Shown here: positions 1,251-50,900 of the stretch, in pieces | Position numbering within the stretch: position 1 is the first letter of the stretch | Layout of the letters: each line of letters begins with the position of its first letter | Virus record (IMG/VR): IMGVR_UViG_3300028829_003739 | Span: 4,253 to 68,252 of that record | DNA length: 64,000 bases | From: a virus | Strand: one strand, 5' to 3' | The notes under the pieces: model-generated | Database searches by the model: none | Seen by the model: the letters and a program-made list of their open reading frames with translations, nothing else | What the model was told of the DNA's origin: nothing | Program-made: the position numbers and the translations under genes

Positions 1251-1268
1251 TTTTAGTATATTATATTA
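1251..1268 (+). promoter_or_regulatory. Phage promoter motif (TTTTAGTATATTATATTA)
   Basis: Copy of the recurrent WTTWASTATATTA motif, upstream of ORF 1325. Confidence 0.55.
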
Positions 1269-5475: not shown

Positions 5476-5498
5476 TTAATAAATGTAAAACCAACATT

Positions 5499-12852: not shown

Positions 12853-12925
12853 CTATAGCTATATAATGCGAAATTCTTTTTTATTTACCGTTATTTTTTA
12901 AATCTAATAGATTTATTTTATATAT

Positions 12926-12945
12926 AATTGTGTATATTAATATTA
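12926..12945 (+). promoter_or_regulatory. Phage promoter motif (AATTGTGTATATTAATATTA)
   Basis: Recurrent motif upstream of the scaffold/capsid operon. Confidence 0.5.
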
Positions 12946-12971
12946 GTTAGTCATAACAAAAACCAATAGAT

Positions 12972-14341: not shown

Positions 14342-15970
14342 ATGAGTACACCAGTATGGAACAATGGGCTGTTTTTAAGAGATACCTCTTATCAAGCAAG
14401 CTCGCACATTGATTCTTACCACTTAGCTAGCATGTTGAAAGATGCAGAACCTATGGACATGGGACCAGTAGATATCTGGGCTATGACACAGAAGGTTGAA
14501 ATGCCTCTTTACCAAATGTCAAGCTTTGGAGGAAAGAACGTGATCGAAGTAGACAATATCAGAGGTGAGTATAAGTGGACAACGCCAGTGGCAAATGATC
14601 TTCCTTATATCGTTGAAGATATTGAAACTGCAAACAAAAGAAAAGGTATTGACGGTACCACTTTCAAAATCAAACTTAATAAGAGAGAGTTTGGACACGG
14701 AGATATCATTACTTATGATAAGTATAATGGTGTTGAATTATTAATTTCTAGTGAAGAAGATATCTTACCTTTAGGTGACGGTTTCATTTACACTGTGCAA
14801 TTAGTGAACAATGACTCTTATAAGTTTTTAGATGACAAGTTTTTAGCATCTGGAACTAAGTTTTTCAGAAAAGGTTCTGCTAGAGGTGAGTACGGAGAAA
14901 GATTCTCTGACATCACAACTAAGTCAGGATACAGAGAATTCTACAACTATGTAGGAGGAGCTGAAGCACACGTTCATTATTCTATCTCATCTAGAGCTGA
15001 TATGCAGATCAAAGGTGGTATGAATGCTGACGGTACTGTACCAGTTACTGAAATCTGGAGAAACTTTGATAAGTCTATGGATCCATCAGTATCTTCTATT
15101 GAAGACATGGTATCTAAAATGGGTAAAGATTATGTAAAGAGAGCTGTTGCTAACGGTGACCTTTCTAGATCTTTCTTAACTAATCTTGAAGCAGCTCACT
15201 TAACTAAAGTAGCTACCGATATTGAAACTTACTTAATGTGGGGTCATGGTGGTAGAGCTAGACAAGACGGTCCAGATGATATCAGATTATCTGTAGGTTT
15301 ATGGAAGCAACTTGATAACTCTTTCAAAAGAGTGTACAACAAGTCTTCTTTCAACTTAGAGTTATTCAGAGCAGAGTTATATAACTTCTATGCTGGTAAA
15401 GTTGACTTCCAAGGTCCAGATCCAGGTAGAAAAGTTGTAGTTCAAACAGGTATGGGAGGAATGAGAATGATTAATGAAGCTATCAAAAGAGAAGCTGCAT
15501 CTCAAAACTTCTACATTGATCCGTCTGAGAAATCAGGTATCGGAGCAATCAAAGGTACAGGTATGAACTTAGGACTTGGTTATTCTTACACTAGCTATGT
15601 AATTCCATTCTTAGCTAATGTAGAATTTGTAATCAACCCTGCATTTGATAATGTTCACACTAATGATATTGAGAACCCAATCATTGATGGTAATCCTTTA
15701 TCTTCTTATTCATTCATCATCTTTGATATCACTGATAACACTAATGACAACATTTATATGTTGAAACTTAAGTGGGATTCAGAACTTAAATGGTGGTACC
15801 AAAACGGTACAATGGATTACATGGGAAGAACTCAAGGATTCCAGTCTTCAGGTCAGTTTAACGGATATAGAGTTTATATGACTCAAGTAATGCCGGCAAT
15901 CTGGGTAAAAGACCCGACTAAAGTTCTTAAAATTGTAATGAGAAACCCAGTTACTGGAGGATCATTCTAA
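14342..15970 (+). CDS. Major capsid protein (crAss-like)
   Basis: 542 aa with strongly biased codon use (ttc, aac, atc) and E.YLMWG..G, GLW.QL and TG.GG motifs. Followed by a terminator. Confidence 0.88.
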   Translation: MSTPVWNNGLFLRDTSYQASSHIDSYHLASMLKDAEPMDMGPVDIWAMTQKVEMPLYQMSSFGGKNVIEVDNIRGEYKWTTPVANDLPYIVEDIETANKRKGIDGTTFKIKLNKREFGHGDIITYDKYNGVELLISSEEDILPLGDGFIYTVQLVNNDSYKFLDDKFLASGTKFFRKGSARGEYGERFSDITTKSGYREFYNYVGGAEAHVHYSISSRADMQIKGGMNADGTVPVTEIWRNFDKSMDPSVSSIEDMVSKMGKDYVKRAVANGDLSRSFLTNLEAAHLTKVATDIETYLMWGHGGRARQDGPDDIRLSVGLWKQLDNSFKRVYNKSSFNLELFRAELYNFYAGKVDFQGPDPGRKVVVQTGMGGMRMINEAIKREAASQNFYIDPSEKSGIGAIKGTGMNLGLGYSYTSYVIPFLANVEFVINPAFDNVHTNDIENPIIDGNPLSSYSFIIFDITDNTNDNIYMLKLKWDSELKWWYQNGTMDYMGRTQGFQSSGQFNGYRVYMTQVMPAIWVKDPTKVLKIVMRNPVTGGSF

Positions 15971-15986
15971 GAATAGTTAATTTAGA

Positions 15987-16013
15987 AAAGGAGGGGGTAA
16001 CTCCTCCTTTTTT
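15987..16013 (+). terminator. Intrinsic terminator after MCP
   Basis: AAAGGAGGGG-GTAA-CTCCTCCTTT hairpin followed by a T tract. Confidence 0.85.
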
Positions 16014-16056
16014 ATTTTAGTTGTCAATACATATTAACCAACAAAAATTAAATAAA

Positions 16057-17190
16057 ATGGCAAAAAGATCATTATCAAAAGAAACGACTGCGGACATAAA
16101 AGGCGCACCTACAGCTTCAGTATTAGAAGCAAAAGTTCCAGATACATTAACTAAAACTCCAAAAGTGGTGAAGAAAAAAGCAAAAGCACATTTTACTGAA
16201 ATCTTCAAAGGCACTGGAAAGATTGCAGTTAAACCATATGTAGATCCTGATTCAGAAAACATGGGATTAGAAGATTATGGTTTTGCTTTATTTCCAGGTA
16301 CATATCATGAAGAGCAAATTGCTGCAATAGAAAGAAATGGTATTGTAAGGTTTATTACAGGATTAGACGAGTATGCTCCTGAAGTACAAAACATTAAAAA
16401 TGTTGAGCAAAAAGAAGCTGTTATAGGAAACATAAGAGAAGTAGTTGCTTACTTAGAAAAAGCATTAGCAACTAATGTACTTAAAACAGAAGATGAGGAT
16501 TTTTGGAATAAAGTAAAATTACTTAGACCTGATAATCACGATTTTTGGTCAAAAATATCTATTAAGTGTAGTAATGAACCTACACACATAAATCCTCAGA
16601 ATGATCCTTACGACCTAATCAAATTTATGGCTATAGAAGCAGGAGGATTTGATTTAGTAGCAAAATCATTTGAAGATGCTCAGGCTCAAGCAGTTGCGCC
16701 TAAATTCTTTTTAGATAAAGAGATACATACAACATCAAGTAGAACTAGTTACAAGAAATTACGTAACAAAGCTCTTTCAGCACTTGACAAAATGTTTAAT
16801 AGCAATCCTAAAAAATTATTCTATGTGTCTAAAGTATTAGATACTGATAGTGCAAGTTATAAAACAAACACTCCTACTGACGTATTATATGACGTTATGG
16901 ATGACTTTATAGCAGGGTTAGGTATTGAAACAAATAAATCTAAAGCAGCTGAAAGATTTATTGATACTTGTGATCTTGATATGGAAACTTTAAAATTAAA
17001 AGCAGTTGTTAAAGATGCAACGTTTTTTAGATTTATAAGTTTAAAAACAGATGGAATGTTATATCATAGCGCAACAAGTACTATGTTAGGTAGAAATGTT
17101 GCAGATGTAGTTATATATTTAAAGAATCCTGTAAATGAAGATATACTTATAAGCATATTGCAAGAAGTTGAATCTTTTTGGAATGAGTAA
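16057..17190 (+). CDS. Conserved crAss-like protein downstream of MCP
   Basis: Likely start is ATG 16057 (MAKRSL). Call rests on conserved position in the crAss capsid module. Confidence 0.6.
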   Translation: MAKRSLSKETTADIKGAPTASVLEAKVPDTLTKTPKVVKKKAKAHFTEIFKGTGKIAVKPYVDPDSENMGLEDYGFALFPGTYHEEQIAAIERNGIVRFITGLDEYAPEVQNIKNVEQKEAVIGNIREVVAYLEKALATNVLKTEDEDFWNKVKLLRPDNHDFWSKISIKCSNEPTHINPQNDPYDLIKFMAIEAGGFDLVAKSFEDAQAQAVAPKFFLDKEIHTTSSRTSYKKLRNKALSALDKMFNSNPKKLFYVSKVLDTDSASYKTNTPTDVLYDVMDDFIAGLGIETNKSKAAERFIDTCDLDMETLKLKAVVKDATFFRFISLKTDGMLYHSATSTMLGRNVADVVIYLKNPVNEDILISILQEVESFWNE

Positions 17191-17191
17191 G

Positions 17192-17211
17192 AAATTTAGT
17201 ATATTATTATA
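17192..17211 (+). promoter_or_regulatory. Phage promoter motif (AAATTTAGTATATTATTATA)
   Basis: Recurrent motif in an intergenic gap. Confidence 0.6.
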
Positions 17212-17221
17212 CAAGCTTTAA

Positions 17222-17260
17222 TAAACAAGGGTAACTTTCTTTAAAGTTTACCCTTGTTTA
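17222..17260. repeat. Inverted repeat/hairpin in the leader of ORF 17296
   Basis: TAAACAAGGGTAA...TTACCCTTGTTTA, 13-bp perfect arms. Confidence 0.7.
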
Positions 17261-17295
17261 GTAAATAAGAGTCAATAACACTAAATAAGAAGAAA

Positions 17296-18000
17296 ATGAA
17301 TAATGCCGCAATTCAGTTAAAGATAAAACAAAGACTTAATAAGTTAGACAGTTCTGATTATGATAACATAGAAGCGTGGCAACTTATTGAAGCGTTTAAC
17401 AAAGGTCAAGTAACTTGGTGTAGAAGACAGTTACATGGAACTAATACTAAACAGGAAGGTGATGAACAATCTAAAAGACGTATAGATGATTTACAAAGAT
17501 TGTTAAAGGAAAAAGATATGCCTTTAACAATGAGTGATACATATTTTATAAGTCAAGAATTACCTGATGATTATTTTGAATGGAAAAGAATCAGTGTAAC
17601 TGCCGTAGATAAATGTTGTGATGATCCTAGAAAAATGGTAATCTATTTAGCGGAAGAAGCTAATGTAGATGAGCTATTACGTGATGATATTAAAAAACCT
17701 AGCTTTGCTTGGGCAGAAAGTTTTTGCACATTAAAAAATAATAAAATACGAGTATTTACAAACAATGAGTTTGAAATTAATGATGCTGTATTATCTTATT
17801 ATAGACAACCTGTAAGAATACAAATTGCAGGGATACAAGATCCTTACAATCAATTAGTATCATTAATTGATGTTGAATGTGAGTTTAAAGATGACATTGT
17901 AGAAGTGCTTGTAGACGAAGCGGTTAAGATATTAGCTGGTGATATAGAATCAGTAAATCAAAGACAAATCGCAACTAATGAAGTAGAATCAAATAATTAA
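17296..18000 (+). CDS. Tail ring / head-tail connector protein
   Basis: LNKLDS..Y, LP.DY, Y.R.P and ILVDEAV-like patterns typical of crAss ring proteins, plus position. Confidence 0.6.
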   Translation: MNNAAIQLKIKQRLNKLDSSDYDNIEAWQLIEAFNKGQVTWCRRQLHGTNTKQEGDEQSKRRIDDLQRLLKEKDMPLTMSDTYFISQELPDDYFEWKRISVTAVDKCCDDPRKMVIYLAEEANVDELLRDDIKKPSFAWAESFCTLKNNKIRVFTNNEFEINDAVLSYYRQPVRIQIAGIQDPYNQLVSLIDVECEFKDDIVEVLVDEAVKILAGDIESVNQRQIATNEVESNN

Positions 18001-18024
18001 TACTTTATTAGTATATGTTCTAAG

Positions 18025-18044
18025 AAATTTTTACTATATTATAT
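18025..18044 (+). promoter_or_regulatory. Phage promoter motif (AAATTTTTACTATATTATAT)
   Basis: Recurrent motif upstream of ORF 18080. Confidence 0.6.
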
Positions 18045-18079
18045 GTATATATATTTTGTTTAATTAAATTTTTAAAAAA

Positions 18080-19474
18080 ATGGCTTATTTTAACCATGCG
18101 TACAAAAAGTCTTTCCTAGCAGTTGTTGGAGATAGACAAGTTAACGTAGAGAACAGTCCTCTAAGAGATGACGAGTTACCTCTACCAAATGATATTGAAA
18201 TCAAACTTGGTGTCTTAGACACAGATGGAGTTCATATTTCATATCTTAAAGAACCAGAATTAGGAATGGGTCCTGGAGTAGTAGGATTTTTTAAAGCAAC
18301 TGAAAAAGATAAAGATTTATCTGTTAGACCAGGTGTGTTAGCTGCAGACTGTTGCCCATTTTATGTTGCAGGTGCTGCAATTAAAACTAAAGACAAGCAA
18401 GGACCTTACCATGGTGGGTACAGAGAACCTGCTAGATCTAAAGTTATCAATCCTAAGTATACAAGAAAAACTTGGGGTGTTGTTCCTAATGCTGCTTCAC
18501 AAGCTGTATTAGAAATTGGAGGTACTGCAGATAATATCGCAGCTAACCCAGCATGTGCAAAAGAATTTATTTGCGGTGAAGATTATAACTTAAGAATAGA
18601 TATTAAAGGAACACCTGCATTAAGGTTTGCTAATCATAACTTGTACCATACTTTTCAAGCTAATGGTGGATGTTGTGCAGATCCAACTTTACCAGCAGCA
18701 GTAGGTCCTGAAACTATATACACGCAATGGGCAACACAAATTGCTGAAAGTGAATTCACTAAAGATTTTGTTTTACCATTAGTAGAAGTAACATATGATG
18801 ATCCTGCTAACCCAGGAACTCCAGTTACTAATACATACGCCTATGATAAAGCTTCAGCATTAGCTGCAGGTTTACCAGCAGTAAATATTTTATCTGCAAT
18901 TGATGCTTTAACAGCAATTGAATCAGCAGGTTTAATTTTATTAGGTGCATATGTTGATACTAAATTTGGAGATTGTACTTTCCAAGTATCTGATTTCTAT
19001 GGACAAGATCCAGTACAGTTATTTGCTTCTGAAGTAGATTACAATGGTGATCCTTGTGCATTTGAAGGTTTATGTGTAACTGATGTTTGTTTAGGTATTA
19101 AAGCTGAAGGACTAGGTGAATCAGTAGTTAGAGATGTAATTTTATCTGAAAGCTACCTTCAAAACTTCTTCTCTACTGATGAGAGAATTAGAGAAATTAC
19201 TCAAGGTACAGCAGTATTTGATTTAGTTGATAGAACTGCATTATATAGCAGAACTTATATTTTACATTCTGTTCCAAGATTCAATAATCCAACTGGAGTA
19301 TTTGATAATGATCAGTACTTACTTGAAATTATTGGTGATGGTGACACTGTAAAATTCTTAGCTGATGCACTTAATGACTGGACAGCTAATTGTGCAGTTT
19401 CTTGTGATGAGCATAAGTTATTCATAGTTGAGCCTTGTGAGTTTGATCCTAAATTTGTAACTCCAAAAGTGTAA
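18080..19474 (+). CDS. Auxiliary capsid (abundant structural) protein
   Basis: Has its own promoter and terminator and sits third after MCP, as in crAss-like phages. Beta-rich and Cys-containing. Confidence 0.55.
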   Translation: MAYFNHAYKKSFLAVVGDRQVNVENSPLRDDELPLPNDIEIKLGVLDTDGVHISYLKEPELGMGPGVVGFFKATEKDKDLSVRPGVLAADCCPFYVAGAAIKTKDKQGPYHGGYREPARSKVINPKYTRKTWGVVPNAASQAVLEIGGTADNIAANPACAKEFICGEDYNLRIDIKGTPALRFANHNLYHTFQANGGCCADPTLPAAVGPETIYTQWATQIAESEFTKDFVLPLVEVTYDDPANPGTPVTNTYAYDKASALAAGLPAVNILSAIDALTAIESAGLILLGAYVDTKFGDCTFQVSDFYGQDPVQLFASEVDYNGDPCAFEGLCVTDVCLGIKAEGLGESVVRDVILSESYLQNFFSTDERIREITQGTAVFDLVDRTALYSRTYILHSVPRFNNPTGVFDNDQYLLEIIGDGDTVKFLADALNDWTANCAVSCDEHKLFIVEPCEFDPKFVTPKV

Positions 19475-19496
19475 TTTAAATTAATAATTAATAATC

Positions 19497-19538
19497 AAAG
19501 GGAGAGTGGAGTTTATATTCTTCTCTCCTTTTTTTTTT
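19497..19538 (+). terminator. Intrinsic terminator
   Basis: AAAGGGAGAG...TTCTCTCCTTT hairpin followed by a long T tract. Confidence 0.8.
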
Positions 19539-19549
19539 AAATAATAAAT

Positions 19550-20104
19550 ATGGGACAGCATAAGTTAAGTTTAGAAGCACCTCTCACGATGAATGATTGT
19601 GTGTTAAGAGTTGTAGATACAAGTATATACGACTCAAATGTGGACATAGATTGTCCATTATTAGAAATTACATTACCAGGCTTTTCGTATAGTGTTCAAT
19701 TAGGGGAAAATAAAATTAGCCCCAATTTTATTTTAAACTTGTCAGCTTGCGATCTTGAAATACAAACAGCTAATTGTGGTACTGTTTTCAATAGTTTACC
19801 AGATGGGATATACATTATCAAATATAGCGTATCACCCAATGACACCGTCTATGTTGAATATAATCACTTACGCATTACTAGTGCATTAACTACGTACGAA
19901 AAAATACTATGTGACATTGACGTATCGGATTGCTCACCAACTTCTAAAGTTGCTAAACAGTTAGAAGATTTAAGACAGATAAAAATGTATCTTGAAGCTG
20001 CTAAAGCAAAAGTAGAAACATGTCATGAACCTAAAAAGGGAATGACTCTATATAATTATGCTGTAAAACAACTAAGTAAATTTACATGCAGTAGTTGTCA
20101 TTAG
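19550..20104 (+). CDS. Structural protein (tail hub-like)
   Basis: LPDGIY.IKYSV.P motif, Cys-containing, in the structural module. Confidence 0.5.
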   Translation: MGQHKLSLEAPLTMNDCVLRVVDTSIYDSNVDIDCPLLEITLPGFSYSVQLGENKISPNFILNLSACDLEIQTANCGTVFNSLPDGIYIIKYSVSPNDTVYVEYNHLRITSALTTYEKILCDIDVSDCSPTSKVAKQLEDLRQIKMYLEAAKAKVETCHEPKKGMTLYNYAVKQLSKFTCSSCH

Positions 20105-20126
20105 TAAATATTTAAAACCAACAAAT

Positions 20127-20264
20127 ATGAAATGTACAAATTGTGGAGCTACGTTAACTTGCGGATGTAAGAAAAGAGTGGCTAAAGATGGAGCTAAAGT
20201 ATGTGCTCACTGTGTTAAATCATATAACGCAAAACTAAAAGAAACAGAAAATAAAAAAGAATAA
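20127..20264 (+). CDS. Small Cys-rich metallothionein/Zn-finger-like protein (45 aa, not in ORF track)
   Basis: MKCTNCGATLTCGCKKRVAKDGAKVCAHCVKSYNAKLKETENKKE. It fills the intergenic gap and follows the AAAACCAACAAAT leader. Confidence 0.75.
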   Translation: MKCTNCGATLTCGCKKRVAKDGAKVCAHCVKSYNAKLKETENKKE

Positions 20265-20267
20265 GTT

Positions 20268-22106
20268 ATGTGTGATATTGCTGTTAAGTATAAATCAAAA
20301 TGTGATGGTGTTGAATACTTTAAATCAATAGAAGGTTTTGATGCATCAAATTCTGAATGGCCTAGTTTAGTAGATCTTATAGCTAATAATTGTCCTGGTG
20401 ATATAATAAGTATTACTACACAAATACAAGGTCAGCCAGATAGCATAAATGAACAAGCAGCAGAAGTAATAGCATGGTCTACACGATGTGACGGACCTAT
20501 ACTTCCTTGTTTAACAGTAAATGCCGATAATACAGGTGCAGAAATAATAGGTGATACGTCAGGTCCAGTAGCATTTAATAGTTATGCGGGACCGTTTTAT
20601 AAATTAACACCTTGTGATTTTGAGGTTGATGAAAAAACATATTATTTTGAAAATAATGCTTTAGATTTTTATGTTGGTAGAACAATATCATATACAATAT
20701 CTGATTCTGCAAAAATATGCGGTACAGTATCTTTAGTAGATTGTGTACCAGAAGGCGAACCTATAAAAGAAATTACATGGATAAGTATTATAGACTACTA
20801 TACAGATTGTGAAACTTGTAAAGACATACCTGTAATAACTGAAGAAAAAAAAGTAAAAAGAAGATCAGTAAAACCTGGTTATAATACACCGGGATGTCCT
20901 CCTGAATATTATGATAAAACAAGTTGTAAATTTGGAGAAGCTCAGTTTCAAGAAGTAGCTAACAAAAGATACGGTATTGAATTTTGCTGTGACCCTGATC
21001 AACAGAAGTGGGAAATAAAAAAAGAATTACTTGATTTAGCAGCAGCTAAAGATCCGGATATATGTGAAACCATTTGCCCTACACCTGAAGAAGAATGTAG
21101 TACTAAATGCTTAAATATTGTTGACTGTTTTACAGCTAATCAATTTGGATTATTTCTATCAATGGGTGACTTACAATTATCACCAATAACAGATTATATA
21201 AATTCATATCAAACAAGTAATCCTACAGCGTATGCTCAAATGATGGAGTCTTACGAATGTATTACAGAAACTGATTATTGCGTATCAGGAATATGCTATT
21301 ATACTTTAAGCTGTTATCAAAATATGCATGAAAGTTTAACAGGTATAACGTCTGAGATACAGGTTTGTAGAGCAGAAGCTGATTATAATGAAACAACACA
21401 ACAAGATGAGTATGAGAAAACTATACAAGATATACAGCAATGTATAAAAGAACAAGAAAGCACACAAGAAGAAATTGATAATCTTAATGAGGAGCTTGCA
21501 AATTTACAAGCTCAATTAGCTGTAGCAACAGACCCTGTTGAAATTGCTGAATTAGAGCAAGAAATAGCGGCTGTACAGGAGCAGATTGATTCACTTGAAG
21601 CTTATATAGCAGCTGTAATAGAAGAATGTGGTGGAAATATTACACAACTTCAACAACAGCTTATTGATATTACTTTAATAAGACAAATTGTAAATGCTGG
21701 TTATCAATATATGAGGCAATGGTTAGATAATTTACTTGCGTATTTATCAAAACTAAGAGATAGAATTCAAGAAACCTATCAAGGTGCTTCTAATTATACA
21801 TGTTGTGATCTATATCCGATTATATGTGGTAATTCTACAATTACTTTTACAGGATGTAGCGGTAATGAATTAACTGTTCCATTAGGAGCCATAAATAGAA
21901 AGGTTTATTATAAGGAAGGAACAACTATTACATTTAATAATCCTGACTATGCTACAGCAATTATAGCAATTGTTGAATCACCTACTCCTCCATTAACATT
22001 TAATGAATTTGCAAATCAAATATTTACATGGGATGACGAATGTGTTTCATCAAGTTGTTCAGATGACCCTAATCCACCTTATGATCCAGGAGCAAATCCT
22101 GCATAA
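20268..22106 (+). CDS. Cys-rich structural protein with acidic coiled coil
   Basis: Many Cys, the motif YTDCETC..PGY.TPGC..RYGI.FCC, and a heptad segment at about aa 380-460. Confidence 0.55.
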   Translation: MCDIAVKYKSKCDGVEYFKSIEGFDASNSEWPSLVDLIANNCPGDIISITTQIQGQPDSINEQAAEVIAWSTRCDGPILPCLTVNADNTGAEIIGDTSGPVAFNSYAGPFYKLTPCDFEVDEKTYYFENNALDFYVGRTISYTISDSAKICGTVSLVDCVPEGEPIKEITWISIIDYYTDCETCKDIPVITEEKKVKRRSVKPGYNTPGCPPEYYDKTSCKFGEAQFQEVANKRYGIEFCCDPDQQKWEIKKELLDLAAAKDPDICETICPTPEEECSTKCLNIVDCFTANQFGLFLSMGDLQLSPITDYINSYQTSNPTAYAQMMESYECITETDYCVSGICYYTLSCYQNMHESLTGITSEIQVCRAEADYNETTQQDEYEKTIQDIQQCIKEQESTQEEIDNLNEELANLQAQLAVATDPVEIAELEQEIAAVQEQIDSLEAYIAAVIEECGGNITQLQQQLIDITLIRQIVNAGYQYMRQWLDNLLAYLSKLRDRIQETYQGASNYTCCDLYPIICGNSTITFTGCSGNELTVPLGAINRKVYYKEGTTITFNNPDYATAIIAIVESPTPPLTFNEFANQIFTWDDECVSSSCSDDPNPPYDPGANPA

Positions 22107-22121
22107 ATTGTATGAGTGAAA

Positions 22122-22141
22122 AAAATTAACTATATTATATA
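22122..22141 (+). promoter_or_regulatory. Phage promoter motif (AAAATTAACTATATTATATA)
   Basis: Recurrent motif upstream of ORF 22170. Confidence 0.6.
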
Positions 22142-22169
22142 TAAGGACTTTGAAAAAAAATAAGAATAA

Positions 22170-23033
22170 ATGAAACCTATTAATAACAACGAAGAGGGAT
22201 GTTCTCCAATATCATCAAATTGTGTGATATGGCAAGGTCCTGACATAGATTGTATAAATTTATGTAAAGGAGATACTGTAAGTGATGTTGTACATAAACT
22301 TGCAACTGAATTATGTGCAATATTAGATGGAACAAACGTAACTGTATATGATTTAAGCTGTTTAGATTTGATACAGCAAGATCCGCCAACATTCCAAGCT
22401 CTTATACAATTATTAATAGATAAGATTTGTCAATTAGAAAATATTAATCCAGATCCTGATACAAAAGCAGGTAGTGTATGTCCTGATCAATGTATAGTGC
22501 AGCTTGCACAGTGTTTACAGTATACTGATAATCTTGGTAATTTAGTTACTACTTTACCTTTAAAAGATTACGTTATACTTGTAGGTAATAAGATTTGTGA
22601 TATACTTACTAGTATTGATACTATAAACTTAGAGTTGGCTAATCATGAAACAAGAATTGCAACTCTAGAAGATTATTTTCCTTTACCTCCAGTAACACTT
22701 CCACAAGTAACACCACAATGCGTTACTTCTAATCCAGGAACAGCACAAGAAATAGATGCTGTATTAACTGATTTAGAAGCAGCATTCTGTAACTTAAGAG
22801 AAGTTCTGGGAGGTGCTACTCCTGACGCAACAATATTGAATGCTATTAATTCAATGTGTCAAGATTTAAGTACACAAACATCACTTTTAGATCCTAATAT
22901 ACCAATGTCAAATCTTACTACTGGTACTAACGGTAGTATAGGATGGACAGTTACTCCAAGTAATTTAGCACAATCATTTACAAATGCTTGGATTACTATC
23001 TGTGATTTAAGAAATGCTGTAACACAGAAATGA
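22170..23033 (+). CDS. Cys-rich fibre protein, N-terminal part
   Basis: CSPISSNCVIWQGPDI.C..LC.GD motif and short helical repeats ending in 'IC'. Confidence 0.55.
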   Translation: MKPINNNEEGCSPISSNCVIWQGPDIDCINLCKGDTVSDVVHKLATELCAILDGTNVTVYDLSCLDLIQQDPPTFQALIQLLIDKICQLENINPDPDTKAGSVCPDQCIVQLAQCLQYTDNLGNLVTTLPLKDYVILVGNKICDILTSIDTINLELANHETRIATLEDYFPLPPVTLPQVTPQCVTSNPGTAQEIDAVLTDLEAAFCNLREVLGGATPDATILNAINSMCQDLSTQTSLLDPNIPMSNLTTGTNGSIGWTVTPSNLAQSFTNAWITICDLRNAVTQK

Positions 23034-23647
23034 TTAACTCAACTCAAATGAGGTTAATATTCTCTGGTAATATACCTAGTAATTATGCTGATACTAATAC
23101 AGCATCAACAATTGTTATTACGGATACTGTAACTGGATTAAGCATGACATTAAATAGTGTTACTATTATATCTAGTTATTATTCTACAAATACACCATAT
23201 ATTGTTACGTTAGCAAATGGTATTAGTGGAACAAATAATATGACTGTAGCTACTACTTTACAAGCAACAGATCCAGAATTAGGTAATGAGTGTGTTATTC
23301 AAGATCAAACGTTAGCGTTAGGTGCTGATGCTTGTCCAACATTAACTATACAACCTTCATTTGAATCAGTACAAGTAGATTTTACATGGACAGGAGCAAC
23401 ACCAACAGTAATGACTGCAAAAGTATATGACGCATCAGGAACTACTTTACAAGCTAGTTTACAATTTACCGTAAGTACTTCAGCTGGAACAGTTACAATA
23501 AATAACTTAGTTCAAGGAACTGATTATAAATTTGAATTAGTAATAAACGGTAACGCTTGTCCACAAGAAGCTTTTACAACTTTATTAGAAAATTGTAATC
23601 CACCTACTAACGTAAGTGCTACTTCTTTACAAGAATCACCTGCATAA
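23030..23647 (+). CDS. Fibronectin type III-like fibre protein (possibly the C-terminal part of the previous gene)
   Basis: V.FTW..TI.NLVQGTDY.FEL FN3 pattern and an ATGA overlap with the previous ORF. Confidence 0.55.
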   Translation: MINSTQMRLIFSGNIPSNYADTNTASTIVITDTVTGLSMTLNSVTIISSYYSTNTPYIVTLANGISGTNNMTVATTLQATDPELGNECVIQDQTLALGADACPTLTIQPSFESVQVDFTWTGATPTVMTAKVYDASGTTLQASLQFTVSTSAGTVTINNLVQGTDYKFELVINGNACPQEAFTTLLENCNPPTNVSATSLQESPA

Positions 23648-23658
23648 AATAAAAAGAA

Positions 23659-24186
23659 ATGAGTAACGACTGTAAACATAAAAATCCATGTGGCTGTAAT
23701 GATTCAGCACAAACTACACCACCTCCTTGTAATGAAGCTGCTCCTTGTACAGGAGAGCCTTGTTCAGAGGTATTTTGTCAAGAGTGTATATCATATTGCA
23801 ATGACACTTTTTCTATTGATTTAGGAGGAGCATCACCGTTTACTATAAGTCAAGGTGATAGATTAGATTATATATTGCAAAAACTACTTATACAATTATC
23901 AGGAGCTGCAAACTGTATTAACACTGCAGCACTAGCATTACATTCTACTTTAATTTTAGAAGATCAAATAGATATTGAATGGATAGGATCTGCAGCTGAT
24001 CAATATAAAGTAACTTACAAAGATGTGAGTACTGGCGTATCAGTTGATAGTCCAAATTTAGCAGTAGGAGTAAGTTCTTATTCTATACAAGGGTTAGTAC
24101 CTGCATCTACATATGAAATATTGGTTACTAATTTAACTGATAATTGTGAGTCAGTTACTATTACAGTTACAACTAAAACTACATAA
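23659..24186 (+). CDS. Cys-rich protein with C-terminal FN3 domain
   Basis: Cys-rich N-terminus. I.W....Y.V.YK....Y.IQGLVPASTYEILV is an FN3 signature. Confidence 0.65.
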   Translation: MSNDCKHKNPCGCNDSAQTTPPPCNEAAPCTGEPCSEVFCQECISYCNDTFSIDLGGASPFTISQGDRLDYILQKLLIQLSGAANCINTAALALHSTLILEDQIDIEWIGSAADQYKVTYKDVSTGVSVDSPNLAVGVSSYSIQGLVPASTYEILVTNLTDNCESVTITVTTKTT

Positions 24187-24187
24187 G

Positions 24188-25264
24188 ATGAGTAATCCGC
24201 AAATACCATTATATAATAGACTTTATATACAATACACTCCTCAGTCAACTGAGGTGCACTATATAGGATATAGAATACAAGGTTCAGGTGATGATTATAT
24301 TGTTGACTCTGAATCAGCCACTAGCGGGAATGCAGAAACTTATAATACATTTATAAGTGCTAATACATACTGTGGTGATGTTGTAATAGAATACTGGGTA
24401 GTGCCTGAATGCGGGTATAACCCTGAAGTAATTCCACCTACACATCCTTCAGCTGTATTTGGTACAGTTACATTTAATCAAGTAGAAGCAGAATGTGGTA
24501 ATAAAGTTTATGATCTTAAATATGTAGCTACAGATCCTCCATCTAATAATGTTCCTATTGATGTTATAAACTGCAAAGGTGCTGAACCTACTTTTTTAAC
24601 TAATGTTAATTATGTAACAAATGAATCATCTACTTTATGTATAGATCCTTTAGTAGCAGCAAAACTTGATTTAGATCCTACTTATGAAGTGACTCTTTTA
24701 GAAGACAATCCTTGTGAATGTTCTTGCTATGATATTATTAGAGTATATAACACAGAACCTGATGGTGCTGAAGGAGAAAAAGCAAAGATAGTTTACGTAA
24801 AATATGTAGAAAACTTTTTTAGTCCTACTGTTTCAGAAACTGATCAATCTGTATTATTTGCCGTAGATGTACCTTATGGTGTAGGAAATGCTATAGAGTT
24901 AAAAATAATTCCAGGTAGTTATAAGTTAGCTTATGATCACGGTGTTGTTATTGTAGATCAAATAGGAGATTGTAATAATGCAACACTTTGCGGAATTGGG
25001 CCAGTATTGACTCCTATTCAAATGTCTGCTAGTTACTGTGGTGGTCCAACTCCACCTGTTTCAGTAGATATGACTTTAAATGAATTGTCTGGATATACGT
25101 ATACTTATTATACAACAGCAAAGTATGCTACAGAAATACCAAATGCTACAGTATCTTGGGCACAAGCATCTAATATTGAGATTATAGCATATGCAATATT
25201 AATTAATGATACTACTGGTTGTGAATATAGAAGACCTATTTATGCAGAAGTACTAGCTTGCTAA
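24188..25264 (+). CDS. Putative fibre/receptor-binding protein
   Basis: Likely start is ATG 24188. Beta-rich and Cys-containing. N-terminus resembles the next ORF (YTPQST.VH.I vs FTPNTS.DH.I; NTYCGD vs NGYCDS). Confidence 0.5.
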   Translation: MSNPQIPLYNRLYIQYTPQSTEVHYIGYRIQGSGDDYIVDSESATSGNAETYNTFISANTYCGDVVIEYWVVPECGYNPEVIPPTHPSAVFGTVTFNQVEAECGNKVYDLKYVATDPPSNNVPIDVINCKGAEPTFLTNVNYVTNESSTLCIDPLVAAKLDLDPTYEVTLLEDNPCECSCYDIIRVYNTEPDGAEGEKAKIVYVKYVENFFSPTVSETDQSVLFAVDVPYGVGNAIELKIIPGSYKLAYDHGVVIVDQIGDCNNATLCGIGPVLTPIQMSASYCGGPTPPVSVDMTLNELSGYTYTYYTTAKYATEIPNATVSWAQASNIEIIAYAILINDTTGCEYRRPIYAEVLAC

Positions 25265-25276
25265 AACATTTAAAAT

Positions 25277-26662
25277 ATGACACTTATAAACGAATCTCAA
25301 GATTTTTGTAGCGAAACAGTAGTAATACAAGTTACTTTTACACCTAATACATCAGGTGATCATACTATAGATATTGACGGTGGTACACCTGTTATACACG
25401 ATGTTGCATTAATAGATGTTGGTACTCCTGTTACCGTAAATGCAAATTATATTAGCGTAAATGGTTACTGTGATTCAACAACTATAACAGGTAATGTATT
25501 TGCAAATTGTGATCCTGAAACTGAAGTACCATTTAGTGTTATAATACCTGTACAAACAGAAGATTGTAGAAATGGTGCTATAGTAGGAGAAGGTATGTAT
25601 CCTATTAGAACTGTAGATATTATTAATGGTGGTGCAGGATATAATAACGGAGGATCAACTACATACACTAATGTTCCTGTTATAGCTTATGATATCTCAA
25701 ACGCATTGCATGGTACAGGATTTTTATTAAATCTTGTTATACAAAGTGGTGTAATAGTTACTGCAACTGTAGCAGCAATAGGTGATGGTTATGCGCCTGT
25801 TGATTGGGCAACATCACCTATTACTGTAGGTTTTCAACCAGATCCTGCAGTAGTAGGTACTCCAACTACAATAGCAAGAATAGAAGGTAACTTTAATAGT
25901 GGTGATGCATATACTTTACCTATTGATTTAGCAGGATCTTCATGTGAACCTGGCACAGGTCAAACAGATTTAATAATAGAACAATCATATCAAGACTTTA
26001 TAAAATTTACTGGGTGTATAGATACTGACACATTACCATATGATTTAGATTTTAGTGGCAAACAACCGATAAATAATTGCTGTTGCATGGAATGTAAAGT
26101 AGGTGTTGTTATTGTAGAAGATATAGCCAGCGGATCAGGAACAATGTTTTTTCAAGATTACGGTACTAGAAAAATACTTACAAGAGATTTTGATAATCAA
26201 CTATCAGACGTTTATATATTTGCTAATAATACATATTATGAAAAATTTGACACAACAAATGATATTATAGATCAATCATTATATTTAGGTAATCATAGTG
26301 CTAATAACGGATCAAGATTAATAGATAGTAATGGAGCATTATGTGTAGGAAATATACATTATGCTGACTGTGATGGTCCGGAAGTATTTAATGGTAATAT
26401 AGTTGAGTGTTCTAATACAGGAGTTTCTGCATCATATGATTTAGCTAGTATGGGAGGAGATATTGCACCATTTGATCCATCTCCAACATTTGAATTCTAT
26501 GATGATTACACTTTAACAACTCCAATAAGTAATACTTCATCATATCAAAATAGTGTTAATAGAAAACTTATAATTGTTGTGACAACAGGCGCAAATGGTA
26601 AAAAATCTATAAGTAGATTAAGTTTACAATATCAAACACCTTGTCCTCCTGCAGAGTCATAA
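25277..26662 (+). CDS. Putative tail fibre/receptor-binding protein
   Basis: V.IINGGAGY and V.AIGDGY fibre-type repeats. N-terminus appears paralogous to ORF 24188. Confidence 0.55.
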   Translation: MTLINESQDFCSETVVIQVTFTPNTSGDHTIDIDGGTPVIHDVALIDVGTPVTVNANYISVNGYCDSTTITGNVFANCDPETEVPFSVIIPVQTEDCRNGAIVGEGMYPIRTVDIINGGAGYNNGGSTTYTNVPVIAYDISNALHGTGFLLNLVIQSGVIVTATVAAIGDGYAPVDWATSPITVGFQPDPAVVGTPTTIARIEGNFNSGDAYTLPIDLAGSSCEPGTGQTDLIIEQSYQDFIKFTGCIDTDTLPYDLDFSGKQPINNCCCMECKVGVVIVEDIASGSGTMFFQDYGTRKILTRDFDNQLSDVYIFANNTYYEKFDTTNDIIDQSLYLGNHSANNGSRLIDSNGALCVGNIHYADCDGPEVFNGNIVECSNTGVSASYDLASMGGDIAPFDPSPTFEFYDDYTLTTPISNTSSYQNSVNRKLIIVVTTGANGKKSISRLSLQYQTPCPPAES

Positions 26663-26677
26663 AAATATACAAAAAGA

Positions 26678-26750
26678 AGTCATAGTTTGTTGGTTTTACT
26701 GTGATTGACAACGGGGGATCTAAGAATTTTTTCTTAGGTCCCTTTTTATT
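26678..26750 (+). ncRNA. Candidate small RNA: stem-loop displaying UUGUUGGUUUU followed by terminator
   Basis: Stem AGTCATAGT(26678-86)/ACTGTGATT(26698-706) with two G-U pairs and an 11-nt loop complementary to the AAAACCAACAA leader motif. Confidence 0.45.
26713..26750 (+). terminator. Intrinsic terminator
   Basis: GGGATCTAAGAA-loop-TTCTTAGGTCCC followed by TTTTTATT. Confidence 0.85.
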
Positions 26751-26811
26751 TTATATTATTTTATACTTGTGATATAGTATTTTCATTAACTTAACGTGTT
26801 GTAGAAATCAG

Positions 26812-26833
26812 AAAAATTAACTATATTATATTA
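26812..26833 (+). promoter_or_regulatory. Phage promoter motif (AAAAATTAACTATATTATATTA)
   Basis: Near-identical to the copy at 22122. Confidence 0.65.
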
Positions 26834-26844
26834 AGAGTAGTTTT

Positions 26845-27429
26845 ATGAAAAAGATGCGTATTCCTGACTTAAAAGCCCCTAGATTTAAGCAAAGCTATAC
26901 AAGTATAGTTAATAAAGATACTATAGCTGAGTTTAATAGGAGGTATCCTGAATATGGAAATTTAACATATAGTGAATTTAAAAACATTATATCAACTTAT
27001 AATGGGCTACTTGTAAAAGGTATTATAGATAATAGAAATGGTGTTGAATTACCAGACGGTTTAGGATACATTTTTTTAGGAACATGTCCTAAAGCTAAGA
27101 AACAAAATATTGATTATAGAAGTTCTATAGAAAACGGATTTGTAACAGAACACAAAAATTGGGATTCTGATAATAAACTTCTTAAAATATTTTATAGCAA
27201 CTATGAAGCTAAGTATCCTTTTAAACATAAAGATGTTTGGACATTTACTGCTGTAAGGCAATTCAAAAGAGAAGCATCTAAAGCTTATAAAGAAAATTGG
27301 GCTAAGTACATTGAGGTATCTCCTAAAAAGAAAATATCTAAAATGTATGATAGATACAGAAAAAAAGAATATGTCAAAAATCTTAAGCCTATAGTGCCTG
27401 AAGATTATGACGAATTTAAATTAGATTGA
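26845..27429 (+). CDS. IHF/HU-like protein of the crAss tail module
   Basis: Basic, with I...N..L...II....GVELPDGLGYIFL. It precedes the tail ring genes as in crAss-like phages. Confidence 0.55.
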   Translation: MKKMRIPDLKAPRFKQSYTSIVNKDTIAEFNRRYPEYGNLTYSEFKNIISTYNGLLVKGIIDNRNGVELPDGLGYIFLGTCPKAKKQNIDYRSSIENGFVTEHKNWDSDNKLLKIFYSNYEAKYPFKHKDVWTFTAVRQFKREASKAYKENWAKYIEVSPKKKISKMYDRYRKKEYVKNLKPIVPEDYDEFKLD

Positions 27430-27430
27430 A

Positions 27431-28105
27431 ATGACTAAAGTTAGCGAAACTATATCAAGAGTACGTAATGTACTTAAAGCTGTAAAAGAAGATCCGTTTA
27501 TGACGGACCGTTTTATTTATAGCATAATAATGAAACATTCAAAAACTTTAATTAAAAGAGAATCTGATAGAACAAACTTATTTAAGTATGTAAGCTTATT
27601 TACTGAAATACCATGTGTAGATTTAATTGAAGTAGATAAAGTAGATGCTTGCTGTATAGGAATTAAAACAGGATGTACTTTTAAAAGAAGTAAAGAAGAA
27701 TTACCTAAACTATTTAATCTTAGCACAGGACCTGTAATAAAACATATCTCATCTCTAGATTACTCTGAAGGACTTACAGAAACACAACCTGAATTATACA
27801 CTACTCTTACAAAGTCATCAAGCTTTAAATATAATAAGGCTAAGTATTTCTGGATAGTAGACAACTACTTATACATTCCTAACGTAGAATGGGATGCTGT
27901 AAGAATGCACGCAATGTTTGATCAAGATATTTCTGCAAGCTTATGTGGCATTAATGCAAGTGATTGCGTAAAAGAACAAGATAGAGAATTAGCTGTTCCT
28001 GATTATTTGTTTTCTGAAGTAGAACAATTAACAATAACAGAAATATTAACTGCAGGTCAAGTACCATCTGATGGTGCTGATGATAGCCAAAACGTATTGA
28101 GATAA
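27431..28105 (+). CDS. Tail ring/tubular protein
   Basis: RS...LP, YFWIVDNYLYI and VPDYL...VE patterns, plus position. Confidence 0.55.
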   Translation: MTKVSETISRVRNVLKAVKEDPFMTDRFIYSIIMKHSKTLIKRESDRTNLFKYVSLFTEIPCVDLIEVDKVDACCIGIKTGCTFKRSKEELPKLFNLSTGPVIKHISSLDYSEGLTETQPELYTTLTKSSSFKYNKAKYFWIVDNYLYIPNVEWDAVRMHAMFDQDISASLCGINASDCVKEQDRELAVPDYLFSEVEQLTITEILTAGQVPSDGADDSQNVLR

Positions 28106-47925: not shown

Positions 47926-50900
47926 TGGCAGAAGAACAAGAATCATTAGGTTTTGATTTAGGCGCAGAATTAACTCCTCCTAAAATTTCTACATCTAATC
48001 CTTTAGATGTACCAATACCAGAACCTTCTTATAATAAACAAGTTAAGCAACTAGAACAACTAGATGTTAATTTAAAAAATGAAGAATATCAAAATCTATT
48101 AGATGATGTTGAAACTGGTAATTTACCTAATCCTCAAGTAGAAATTACAGATCCTTTATCTATAGATGCTGCAAGAAAGCAGATACAAAATTCATTTACA
48201 TACGGACCTGAAAATGCTAAAGATCCTTTTGGTTTAGCACAAACATTAGACGGTGATTTTAGAGATCCTAAAAAACAAAATACTTTTTATAAAAGATATA
48301 AAGAGCATGGTGCATATGAAGACTTAGGCTTTTCTCCATATAGAGATAATGAAGAATACTATAATGAAAGAACTAGTACTTTTGGTGATTTTGGAAGAGC
48401 ATCAGGACAATGGTGGGAACTAGCTAAATTAGGTTTTAGTGACATGATAGGTATATCAGATATGGATAATCTAGCAGGAGCACGTAAATATGCAGAAGCA
48501 TCAGCTATAGGTTCATCTACTAAAGATGGATTAGGAGCATTTGGTGTAAACACCTTTTTAAACTCAGGTTATACATTAGGTATCATAGGTGAAATGGTAG
48601 TTGAAGAAGCTGCTCTTTTAGGAGTAGAAGCATTAGCTGCTATGGCAGTTCCTGTTACTCTTGGAGCATCAGCTTCAGTTAATGTTGCAGCAGGAGCAAG
48701 AATGGCATATACTGCACAGAAAGGTACAAGAAGAATAGCAAAAGCATGGAAACAAGCAGCTAAGATGCGTAAAACAATGGACGCTATGCAGGATGCTAAT
48801 AAAGCAAGATCTTTCTTTGGTAAATCAATGCAATTTTTAAACCCATTTGAAAACACAACAGCTTTTATAAAAGGTGTTGGTGATATGGGTGACATAGGTA
48901 AACTTACTAAAACTGTAAGAGGTGCCGGAGGATTCATTAGAGATATGCGAGGTATCAGAGGTACTTACAATGAAGCAATCTTAGAAGCTAACATGGTACA
49001 AGATGATATGCATTCAGCAATGTTAGATGACTTTAGAGCTAAACATGGCAGAGCACCTAATGAAGCAGAAGCTCAGGAAATGTTATCTAGTATTAAAAAA
49101 GCTGGTGCAAGTACTGCAATCTGGAATAGTGCTCTTATTGGGGTTACAAATAAATTTACTTTAGGACCATTACTAAGACCAATGAATAGAGGTATAGGTA
49201 TGGGAATGTTTGACTTAGCAAAAACAGGTAGAAAGTTTGTACAGCAATCTTATAAGAAAGGTACGCCTGAAGCTTATAAGTTGTTATCAAGAAACATGTT
49301 TAAAAGAGGTTATGAGTTAGTAAGAAACCCAAGAGCACTTATTGGCAAGTCTTTACTTTACAGTAGCGACAACTTTGCTGAAGGATTACAAGAAGTAGGA
49401 CAAGAAGCAATCTCAGGTTGGCAAAAAGATTACCATACAGCACAGTTTCAAGGTAACGAAGTTAGGGGAGGTTACTATTCATATTTAGCAGACAACTTAG
49501 TAGAGCAAGTAAGCCCACAAGGTTTTGAAACATTTATGTCTGGTTTCTTAATGCAAAAGTTTGTAGCACCTGTTACATCTGCAGGTAGTGCATTAGCAAG
49601 ACCTGATAATTATTCTTCAACAAAAGATTTTTTTACAAATAGAAATAAGTGGAGAGAAGACAGAGCTGAGAATGATGTAAAAGCACAAGAAATTGTAGAT
49701 AACTTAAATAAGTTTTACAAGAATCCTGAAAACTACTTATCAAAAGATTTAATGAGTGCTGTAAGGCAAGGTGAGTATGCAACTATGATGGCAGACGCTG
49801 AAAAAGACGGTGATGTTAAATCATATTATGATGTAAAGGATTCTCAAATGTTTGACAACATTTTACTTGCAATTCAAACAGGTAGACTAGACTCTATGGT
49901 AGGTCAATTAGAAGGTTTAAAAGATCTTACTAATGAAGAAACTCAACAAGAGTACGGTATGGATCAAAGCACCTTTCATGACATGATTGATAAGTCTGTT
50001 AAGAGAGCTAAACATATAGAAAATAGTTATAATGGGTTACAGAAAAAATTTAATAACCCTGTTAACTTTAAACAATATAAGTATGGTAGTCCTGAAAGAG
50101 CTGAAGCTTTTAAAAATCATCAGGCTTGGGAAGCTGCTTTAGGAGATATAGCATTTAATAGCTACTCTTTTACTAGATCTTTAGAAAGAGCTGAATCTAT
50201 CTTAGGTAAAGTAAGTGAAAGTACTGGTTTTAAAAATACCCCTTTAAATGAAATAACTAGCATATTTAGTGTAGGTGAAGTACAAAAAGAATTACAGTTA
50301 TTATCTGCAGAAATAAGTTCTATTGAACAATCTGGTAAAGTAACTCCAGAACTAGGTAAACAAGTAAAAGAAAAAAAAGATAAACAAAAAAAACTTACAA
50401 CTCTTGTTGCTAGTTTAAAAGCTTTAGAAGACGTTACTGAAAACGAAAATGCTGAAGACGTGTACGAAGTAGCAAAAAAAGCATATGAAGATTATATGAC
50501 TTTTATTGCTAAAAAGAATGGTGATCATGCACATAAAGATAAATTAGAAGAATCTTTTAATGAGTTAATAGATTACTACAAGTTAAAAGGTAGAAGTGAA
50601 TCAATGGTAGAAAGGGTAAACCAAATGCTTGACCCTGAAAACTTTATCAATATTCAAAGAAGACTAAAAGATACGTATGATCAAGCCATGGCTATGAGAT
50701 ATGATGAAATCAAAAAGTCTTACAAAGAATATATGAAAGGTAGCACCTTAGATAATAAACTTTTAAATGCTTTAGCTGACATCGGTGTATTCTTAGACGT
50801 AGAAGAACTTAAGAAATTAAAAGAAGAAGGTATCTTTCCTGATGCATTATATTATACTGATCCGGGACAAGGTGGTGAATATGAAGTTGCAAAAACTTCA

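Follow-up and report, generated by a model that had tools for sequence, protein, structure and literature searches.

A hairpin with a near-invariant loop before an intrinsic terminator of uncultured marine phages is complementary to C/A-rich elements upstream of start codons

A hairpin with a G/U-rich 11-nt loop stands directly before an intrinsic terminator in a 64,000-nucleotide stretch of phage DNA (IMG/VR virus record IMGVR_UViG_3300028829_003739, positions 4,253 to 68,252 of that record; hereafter the window, to which all coordinates refer), and recurs throughout a family of uncultured marine phages that is distantly related to the crAss-like phages. Its covarying stem, its loop and its fixed context identify it as a well-supported structured RNA motif that is new and absent from Rfam, and pure chance is excluded by conservation and covariation. 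The loop is complementary to a C/A-rich element in the initiation region of a small set of genes, and the best reading, to which we assign a probability of roughly 0.55, is that the hairpin would act as an antisense regulator of that element, borne in a 3' untranslated region (UTR), like the small RNAs (sRNAs) GcvB or DapZ. Complementarity and conservation, not expression or genetics, carry this reading.

An earlier note on this DNA, made from the letters alone, had described a 9-bp stem with two G-U pairs, an exposed loop and a terminator directly after it, and sequence and folding confirm this layout:

26678-26706, plus strand: hairpin, 9-bp stem with two G-U pairs and 11-nt loop (50 bits with the covariance model R1, described below, at 26675-26720)
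26678-26686, plus strand: 5' arm of the hairpin, AGTCATAGT
26687-26697, plus strand: loop, TTGTTGGTTTT in DNA letters and UUGUUGGUUUU as RNA, the complement of the leader motif AAAACCAACAA
26698-26706, plus strand: 3' arm of the hairpin, ACTGTGATT
26707-26712, plus strand: 6-nt spacer GACAAC between hairpin and terminator
26713-26749, plus strand: intrinsic terminator with a GC-rich 14-bp stem, a 4-nt loop and a T run (stem 26713-26744)
26660-26662, plus strand: stop codon of the variable upstream gene, open reading frame (ORF) 25277-26662, 16 nt 5' of the hairpin

When 26663-26760 was folded, the plus strand formed exactly two hairpins with a minimum free energy of -28 kcal/mol (z -4.5), a stability reached by none of 200 shuffles, while the minus strand gave -16.9 kcal/mol and did not form the first hairpin. 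A search of the whole window against Rfam, GcvB model included, returned no match at the gathering threshold; in 26600-26860 the best sub-threshold match scored 20 bits against a 70-bit threshold (E 0.4), with no match to GcvB.

In the relatives the same hairpin and terminator lie 5' of the orthologues of ORF 26845, although the preceding gene differs. The covariance model R1, built from 31 copies of the hairpin, gave 57 matches with E<1e-3 in 672 kb, every one of them on the coding strand, and found the element in 41 of the 80 loci of an independent, more diverse set; inspection added 13 further copies with variant loops or stems. Each near-complete genome examined holds one syntenic copy. 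A secondary weak R1 match in G009, the one that was checked, lacks the loop motif, and where the hairpin seemed absent 5' of an ORF 26845 orthologue, one gene had been inserted and the element stood 1.3-1.4 kb upstream.

The stem of this element covaries. In alignment A3 double changes occur in seven of the seven modelled pairs, with 86.4% of cells paired and a covariation score of 0.483 as compared with 0.249 after shuffling (0/500 reach the observed value) and 0.08-0.17 when slid; in the second set, A5, double changes occur in six of seven pairs, and the score is 0.599 versus 0.298 (0/500). Both alignments were fitted to the model, which favours structure, but the outright differences between the stems of different clades cannot arise from fitting, and stems have indeed been replaced outright and are still paired (GTCATAG/CTGTGAC, GTGATAG/CTATCAC, GTAGAG/CTCTAC, GTTGCAG/CTGTAAC, GTAGTGG/CTACTGC). 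G-U or U-G pairs are frequent in the stems of both alignments, and the plus-strand fold is more stable than the minus-strand fold in 66 of 66 distinct elements (mean -7.6 versus -4.1 kcal/mol). The many G-U pairs suit only a plus-strand structure, the strand that the earlier note had favoured from the two G-U pairs of the window's stem. Conservation of the loop on a covarying stem, which that note had put forward as a check, is likewise found: nearly all loops have the form (U)UUGUUGGUUU(U), and even variant loops keep the near-invariant core UUGGUUU. The variants UUUAUUGGUUUU, UUUUAUAUUGGUUUU and UUUCUUGGUUU define clades (G006-G008, G024, G025; L267-L271, L277; L282), and the stem of the UUUAUUGGUUUU-loop clade has a conserved 2x2 internal mismatch (GTGAWGG / CCWAAAC).

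The context of the element is fixed. In 60 of the 66 elements, an ORF of 80 amino acids or more ends with its stop codon 3-50 nt upstream (median 10), and a terminator-like fold with a T run follows in all 66. With no promoter conserved 5' of the element and a stop codon so close, the 3' end of late mRNAs is a likelier identity for it than a gene under its own promoter. The free-standing sRNA gene that had been proposed is therefore not upheld: the hairpin follows the stop codons of non-homologous genes, and a discrete small RNA would need processing.

The sites complementary to the loop that had been quoted before four start codons of the window are all present, and are listed here with a further copy of the motif:

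5485-5496, plus strand: leader motif GTAAAACCAACA, ending 2 nt before ATG 5499 (122-aa protein), 12 nt complementary to 26688-26699
12959-12968, plus strand: leader motif AAAACCAATA, ending 3 nt before ATG 12972 (443-aa protein, between the portal and capsid genes)
16036-16047, plus strand: leader motif AACCAACAAAAA, 9 nt before ATG 16057 (377-aa protein), directly after the capsid-gene terminator
20114-20125, plus strand: leader motif AAAACCAACAAA, ending 1 nt before ATG 20127 (45-aa zinc-ribbon-like protein), 12 nt complementary to the loop
4327-4336, plus strand: fourth exact copy of AAAACCAACA, inside ORF 4318 at codons 4-6, its membership of the target set being uncertain

Duplexes of the loop with the four leaders have predicted energies of -11.4 (ORF 5499), -10.2 (ORF 12972), -10.8 (ORF 16057) and -12.3 kcal/mol (ORF 20127), as against a median of -4.9 kcal/mol over 43 genes of the window. 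The exact 10-mer AAAACCAACA occurs four times in the window, and AAACCAA, with 14 copies versus 14.9 expected, is not over-represented there. Statistics from the window by itself are weak, and the case becomes strong only with the relatives.

In the 1.26 Mb of 81 capsid-centred loci, the coding strand contains AACCAAC 349 times versus 78 expected, while the reverse complement of the motif occurs 51 times versus 62 expected, 50 of these 51 inside plus-strand ORFs. An ORF with an ATG start begins within 40 nt downstream of 249 of the 349 coding-strand copies, the gap between the end of the motif and the ATG peaks at 3-6 nt, and the motif often stands as two tandem copies in a leader. All 7-mers were then ranked by their enrichment over positions -22 to -1 relative to 1325 predicted starts. 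The five highest are AACCAAC (168 versus 5.9 expected, 28.6-fold), CCAACAA, ACCAACA, AAAACCA and AAACCAA, exactly the five 7-mers that are complementary to the 11-nt loop of the window. We regard this match, found in sequence comparison, as the strongest single argument for a functional link between loop and leaders. The enrichment of AAACCAA before starts that the earlier note had anticipated thus holds for the family, where the word is among the top five; its overall count in the window is at chance.

The motif marks only ~3-8 genes per genome and not initiation regions generally. When AACCAA was counted within 25 nt of the start in 12 near-complete genomes, with a control window inside genes, the classes of genes differed as follows:

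Late-block genes: 34/377, control 7/377
Other same-strand genes: 8/353, control 4/353
Opposite-strand ORFs: 35/719, control 9/719

By orthologue, as read from a table of 18 genomes for ACCAA[C/T] in the leader, within 55 nt upstream, the counts were:

ORF 12972 orthologues: 15/18
ORF 16057 orthologues: 13/18
ORF 20127 orthologues: 13/15 found
ORF 5499 orthologues: 7/17 found
Capsid gene: 0/18
ORF 26845 orthologues: 0/17

Shine-Dalgarno-like words are depleted before the same 1325 starts, occurring at 47 of them (3.5%) versus 10.2% of random windows, with GGAG present 14 times versus 58 expected in a comparison that covered 4000-27000 of the window and 81 related loci, and the leader motif itself is not GGAGG-like. 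The family thus appears to rely on A-rich or C/A-rich leaders without Shine-Dalgarno use, in agreement with the little use of such sequences that had been supposed at the outset for the host phylum. Under these circumstances one might suppose that AAACCAACAAA is a private ribosome-recruitment signal and the hairpin RNA its partner in trans: the leader motif would pair with a host RNA such as ribosomal RNA, and the loop would either mimic that host RNA as a sponge or, as an adaptor, bridge the leader to the ribosome in place of an anti-Shine-Dalgarno sequence. The Shine-Dalgarno-like spacing of motif and ATG, the depletion of Shine-Dalgarno words and the invariant loop core would all suit such a partner. 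However, the motif stands before only the 34 of 377 late-block genes counted above and fewer elsewhere, the capsid gene, which is the most expressed, lacks it altogether, and we know of no precedent; we consider an adaptor or decoy highly improbable, and the small number of marked genes argues against the general Shine-Dalgarno-like adaptor that had been offered as an alternative.

The spacing of the motif also bears on readings at the level of DNA. A promoter element in the leader was considered and rejected. Before ORF 12972 orthologues the motif lies in the 5' UTR, ~20 nt downstream of the conserved promoter-like GTTTA..TTTG..TATATTA (in the window, downstream of the promoter-like TATATTA at 12933), but its distance is fixed to the ATG and not to the -10-like box, and because it also occurs in the leaders after the capsid terminator, where there is no TATATTA box, it is not a promoter element. 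The hairpin itself could be a DNA signal, either a single-stranded hairpin (a priming or replication signal, or an N4-type promoter for the virion RNA polymerase) or one inverted copy of a double-stranded site, AACCAAC/GTTGGTT with TTGTCA, whose binding factor would also occupy the leader regions. N4-type hairpin promoters have a short stem and a 3-nt loop, occur in several copies upstream of early genes and let transcription proceed downstream, whereas here the loop has 11 nt, each genome has one copy and a terminator follows 6 nt downstream. A DNA signal would agree with the single copy at a module boundary and with the minus strand, which reads TTGTCAAT-N6-AAAACCAACA, the same composite as the plus strand before ATG 16057 and ATG 20127; moreover, a crAss-like phage has a virion RNA polymerase that uses single-stranded DNA as its template (10.1101/2020.03.07.982082). 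Yet a stem that covaries with abundant G-U pairs fits RNA best, the terminator 6-10 nt downstream would abort transcripts begun at the hairpin, TTGTCA/TGACAA is conserved only in a subclade, and the leader motif keeps its distance to the ATG and not to a promoter, all of which makes a DNA signal very unlikely in our view. A minus-strand promoter (TTGTCAAT..AAAACCAACA..ATG) was rejected as well, the minus-strand ORF having only 8 codons, the stem covarying with G-U pairs and AACCAAC being a 5'-UTR word.

If the loop acts as an antisense seed, the hairpin RNA would be the 3' end of late transcripts, lying between a variable fibre-like gene and the intrinsic terminator; these transcripts would start at promoter-like sites such as 17200, 18035 or 22131, and the hairpin may be released from them by processing. 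The exposed G/U-rich loop UUUGUUGGUUU would base-pair with the C/A-rich element AAACCAACAAA, which lies 3-6 nt 5' of the start codon in four genes: the two on either side of the capsid gene, one for a 45-70-aa zinc-ribbon-like protein and one for a ~122-aa protein. The C/A-rich element would most likely be a translation-enhancing initiation signal in a phage family that makes no use of Shine-Dalgarno sequences, and pairing would cover both this element and the adjacent start codon. Translation of the targets would thereby be lowered, or timed relative to that of the capsid protein, whose leader has no motif. We favour an outcome in which the flanking head genes are repressed or dosed with respect to the capsid protein, the sign of the effect being a guess.

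The same pairing might take place only in cis, the hairpin folding onto a leader within the same polycistronic late transcript, for example that of ORF 20127, in which case it would shape mRNA architecture, decay or translational coupling and there would be no diffusible regulator. Since no plus-strand terminator-like site was seen in the two intervals scanned, 16014-23900 and 26300-26712, the 20127 leader and the hairpin would be present together on transcripts that start at 17200 or 18035. The ORF 5499 and ORF 12972 leaders, however, lie upstream of the strong capsid-gene terminator and would mostly be on other molecules, and the tandem copies of the motif in many leaders fit the capture of a diffusible partner; pairing restricted to cis seems to us quite improbable.

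Pairing can be judged further from the joint variation of loops and leaders, which was followed in a sample of ~25 genomes with both the hairpin and the four leaders. Where the loop reads UUUAUUGG (A type), the leaders read AACCAAT or AACCAAA, with C in 0 of 16, whereas C is found in 48 of 65 leaders of G-loop genomes. The association of loop G>A with leader C>T has a Fisher p of 1.2e-5, in a count in which G020, whose true loop is of the G type, was mis-typed. Complementarity reaches 11-12 bp in the window's clade. Taken together, the variation of loops and leaders agrees with pairing, in that G-U combinations are tolerated and a C does not face an A, and is no proof of it.

Several observations weigh against antisense pairing. 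On wider sampling the apparent compensation between loop and leaders proved to be a clade-level shift, confounded by descent: a deep clade, with capsids ~73% identical to that of the window, has AACCAA[A/T] and never C, even in its G-loop members G009, L273, L274 and G020. The leaders of the one C-loop genome (UUUCUUGGUUU, UUUCUUGG) contain no compensating G, and genomes with UUAGUUGG loops (UUAG-loop) keep AACCAACA leaders without compensation, which means that complementarity is guaranteed across the family for only 7-8 bp, AAACCAA(C)/(G)UUGGUUU, on the loops and leaders compared. G009 and G020 keep the hairpin but have weak leader motifs. Base composition favours U-rich loops and A-rich leaders alike, and within the window 7 of 200 shuffled loops reach five target leaders at <= -9 kcal/mol, a control of moderate significance. 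The 70 nt 5' of the element, which are the 3' ends of unrelated coding sequences, contain no shared motif or promoter. Finally, when contigs of four marine metatranscriptome runs were compared with 24188-28105, the interval 26546-27200 was uncovered, these being contigs that could not show transcript ends.

Some of these points would suit a 3'-UTR hairpin that is read by a protein or by the termination or degradation machinery, whether it protects against 3' exonuclease, sets the efficiency of termination or is bound by a phage RNA-binding protein, in which case the complementarity to leaders would have no pairing function. The element is single-copy and always lies between stop codon and terminator, an invariant loop on a variable stem is also typical of protein-recognised hairpins, and the loop variants in G021, G002 and G003 are unmatched by leader changes. 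Such a reading would, however, leave it to coincidence that the loop is complementary to precisely the five 7-mers that rank highest ahead of the 1325 starts, which is unlikely, and since the other strong plus-strand terminator, after the capsid gene, has no such hairpin, the element is not a general terminator accessory. We therefore hold a protein-read hairpin to be rather unlikely, and continue to favour antisense pairing of the loop with the leaders.

A second block of complementarity is suggestive in the window's subclade. The 3' arm and spacer of the hairpin form ATTGACAAC, the complement of GTTGTCAAT at 16020-16028, close to where the leader of ORF 16057 is predicted to begin, and the two could pair; the spacer region is kept as (C)TGACAAC or TAACAAC only in this subclade. 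GTCA(A/T)T stands in the window at 16020-16028, 20094-20102 and 12941-12948, near the predicted transcription start. GTCAG is enriched 6-fold (25 versus 4.1 expected). Of 327 leaders, 40 contain GTCA, in most cases 10-13 nt 5' of AACCAAC. In the subclade GTCA is complementary to the TGAC(A) of the 3' arm and spacer, and the 5' arm of the hairpin also begins with GTCA. Compared by eye across genomes, GTCAG tracks the CTGACA spacer only partially, with exceptions in G014 and G018.

The arrangement resembles several bacterial riboregulators in mechanism. The seed region R1 of GcvB is G/U-rich, and DapZ is an enterobacterial sRNA derived from a 3' UTR. As in GcvB and DapZ, a G/U-rich single-stranded seed would face C/A-rich elements near the starts of several mRNAs, and the structure that bears the seed is followed by an intrinsic terminator; the origin in an mRNA 3' end is shared with DapZ. 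Unlike GcvB, the element is phage-encoded and would target the phage's own late genes, its seed lies in a hairpin loop and not in a linear stretch, and no Rfam relationship exists, so that the resemblance is one of mechanism only. CpxQ and SroC are likewise 3'-UTR-derived sRNAs, and the predicted element is like them in its place, flanked by a stop codon and the terminator of the mRNA itself, and in lacking a separate promoter. In Staphylococcus, the C-rich loops of RNAIII and RsaE mask Shine-Dalgarno sequences. The likeness to these RNAs is that of a short conserved motif in a hairpin loop set against an initiation-region motif shared by a regulon, whereas the present target, AAACCAA(CAAA), is not a Shine-Dalgarno sequence, there is one hairpin and not several, and the element is viral.

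GcvB silences ACA or C/A-rich elements that enhance translation and lie immediately 5' of ribosome-binding sites (PMC3879156). A further difference is that the phage family apparently does without Shine-Dalgarno sequences, and its C/A-rich element may be the main initiation signal and not an accessory one. Bacteroidota mRNAs, too, are without Shine-Dalgarno sequences, their initiation being tuned by leader composition and structure, as far as the consulted parts of the sources go (PMC6847099, PMC7797042). The phage family shares this absence; a discrete C/A-rich word of 8-12 nt differs from the single-position Kozak-like preferences described there. For the crAss-like phage phi14:2, an 'extended tripartite' middle promoter and tripartite middle and late promoters are described in the accessible part of the report (10.1101/2020.03.07.982082). 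By that description, compared in words only, both phages have a -35/-10-like motif ahead of the gene that lies between those for portal and capsid; the phi14:2 motif is a promoter and not a leader motif or hairpin, and no such hairpin is reported in that part of the source. Among the literature matches listed, nothing relevant concerned an sRNA in crAss-like phages or an element of this kind, and searches with the motif strings returned only primer- or small interfering RNA-type matches among those listed.

The source record is a 68-kb contig from marine metagenomes, parts of the stretch are present in 24 sequencing runs, and the window is mostly a plus-strand run of phage structural genes. 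The features around the hairpin and its candidate targets are:

14342-15970, plus strand: capsid protein gene (PHROG 11589)
15983-16014, plus strand: strong intrinsic terminator after the capsid gene, adjoined by the ORF 16057 leader, which has no promoter-like box
12910-12939, 17200-17206, 18035-18041, 22131-22137, 26822-26833 and 1219-1268, plus strand: promoter-like tripartite motif GTTTA .. TTTG .. TATATTA, in the larger gaps of this strand
22131-22137, plus strand: promoter-like TATATTA before ORF 22170, the closest putative start for a transcript whose end would be the hairpin and terminator
27431-28105: ORF 27431, crAss-type tail ring protein 2 (Pfam CrAss_Ring_2, E 2.5e-20)

The tripartite motif is conserved before the orthologues of ORF 12972 and ORF 26845 in the relatives. 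ORF 16057 would be expressed by read-through of the capsid-gene terminator, an arrangement common to most relatives. Because ORF 27431 matches CrAss_Ring_2, the block 3' of the hairpin is, by homology, also structural, and the hairpin appears to mark the end of a transcription unit and not of the structural module.

Among the candidate target proteins, ORF 12972, ORF 16057 and ORF 5499 match no PHROG or Pfam family, and profile searches of PDB sequences were empty. ORF 20127, whose orthologues have 45-70 amino acids, has a weak Zn_ribbon_3 match below the Pfam cut-off. The predicted model of ORF 16057 (predicted local distance difference test score, pLDDT, 80.6) has no Foldseek match in PDB at E<=0.001. 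That of ORF 12972 is poor (pLDDT 59), mostly helical and disordered at its N-terminus, which is compatible with a scaffold-like protein and does not show one.

Upstream of the hairpin, ORF 24188 and ORF 25277 (24188-26662) have no homologue in five syntenic relatives, in which gene order is otherwise conserved. ORF 25277 in particular has no relative in IMG/VR and only one, 76% identical, among 5.8 billion proteins. Since gene order is kept and these two genes are not, the hairpin follows a hypervariable gene; the block is probably receptor-binding and its last gene fibre-like. In the relatives the genes 5' of the hairpin end in Cys-rich tails. A metatranscriptome contig (RNA run X24) joins 24975 to 25270, 29 other letters replacing 294 bases, which is most simply a strain variant of this variable region. 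At the other end, two giant ORFs (47925-64000) encode 1673 and >3685 amino acids, the second running off the window. Both are conserved among relatives at 25-32% identity and may correspond to the virion RNA polymerase-like or cargo proteins that are typical of crAss-like phages.

A nucleotide search of 25277-27429 against cultured phages gave no match, and the closest cultured capsid match, from a Leptolyngbya phage, is 29% identical, crAss-like phages reaching ~24%. IMG/VR holds at least 600 capsid matches at 80-89% identity, at least 318 relatives of ORF 26845 (with an alignment query; a single-sequence query gave no confirmed relatives) and at least 571 relatives of ORF 22170. Capsid relatives (66-88% identity; loci L347-L363) also occur in metagenome-assembled genomes labelled Micavibrio, Clostridium, Rickettsiales, Campylobacteraceae, Chitinophagaceae, Bacteroidales and others, several on contigs of phage length (114-120 kb). 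These labels were rejected as evidence of the host, being scattered over many unrelated taxa with 5 of 17 in Bacteroidota, and the contigs are probably mis-binned phage genomes in public assemblies.

Whatever its mechanism, the hairpin adds to the known structured RNAs a new motif with covariation, an invariant loop and a fixed context, absent from Rfam, and it is a handy marker for the end of the head and fibre transcription unit in these genomes. If AAACCAACAAA were a private ribosome-recruitment signal, which we consider highly improbable, the virus would select the start sites of some of its virion genes by an RNA-based system of its own. If the pairing that we favour is real, the hairpin would be a riboregulator that a whole phage family encodes to control translation of its virion genes, and it would point to a discrete C/A-rich initiation element in the position of the Shine-Dalgarno sequence, in phages that avoid such sequences. 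Bacteroidota-like systems pose the question of what singles out an mRNA for strong translation when Shine-Dalgarno pairing is absent, and the natural motif and its natural antagonist would provide a matched pair that is testable with reporters.

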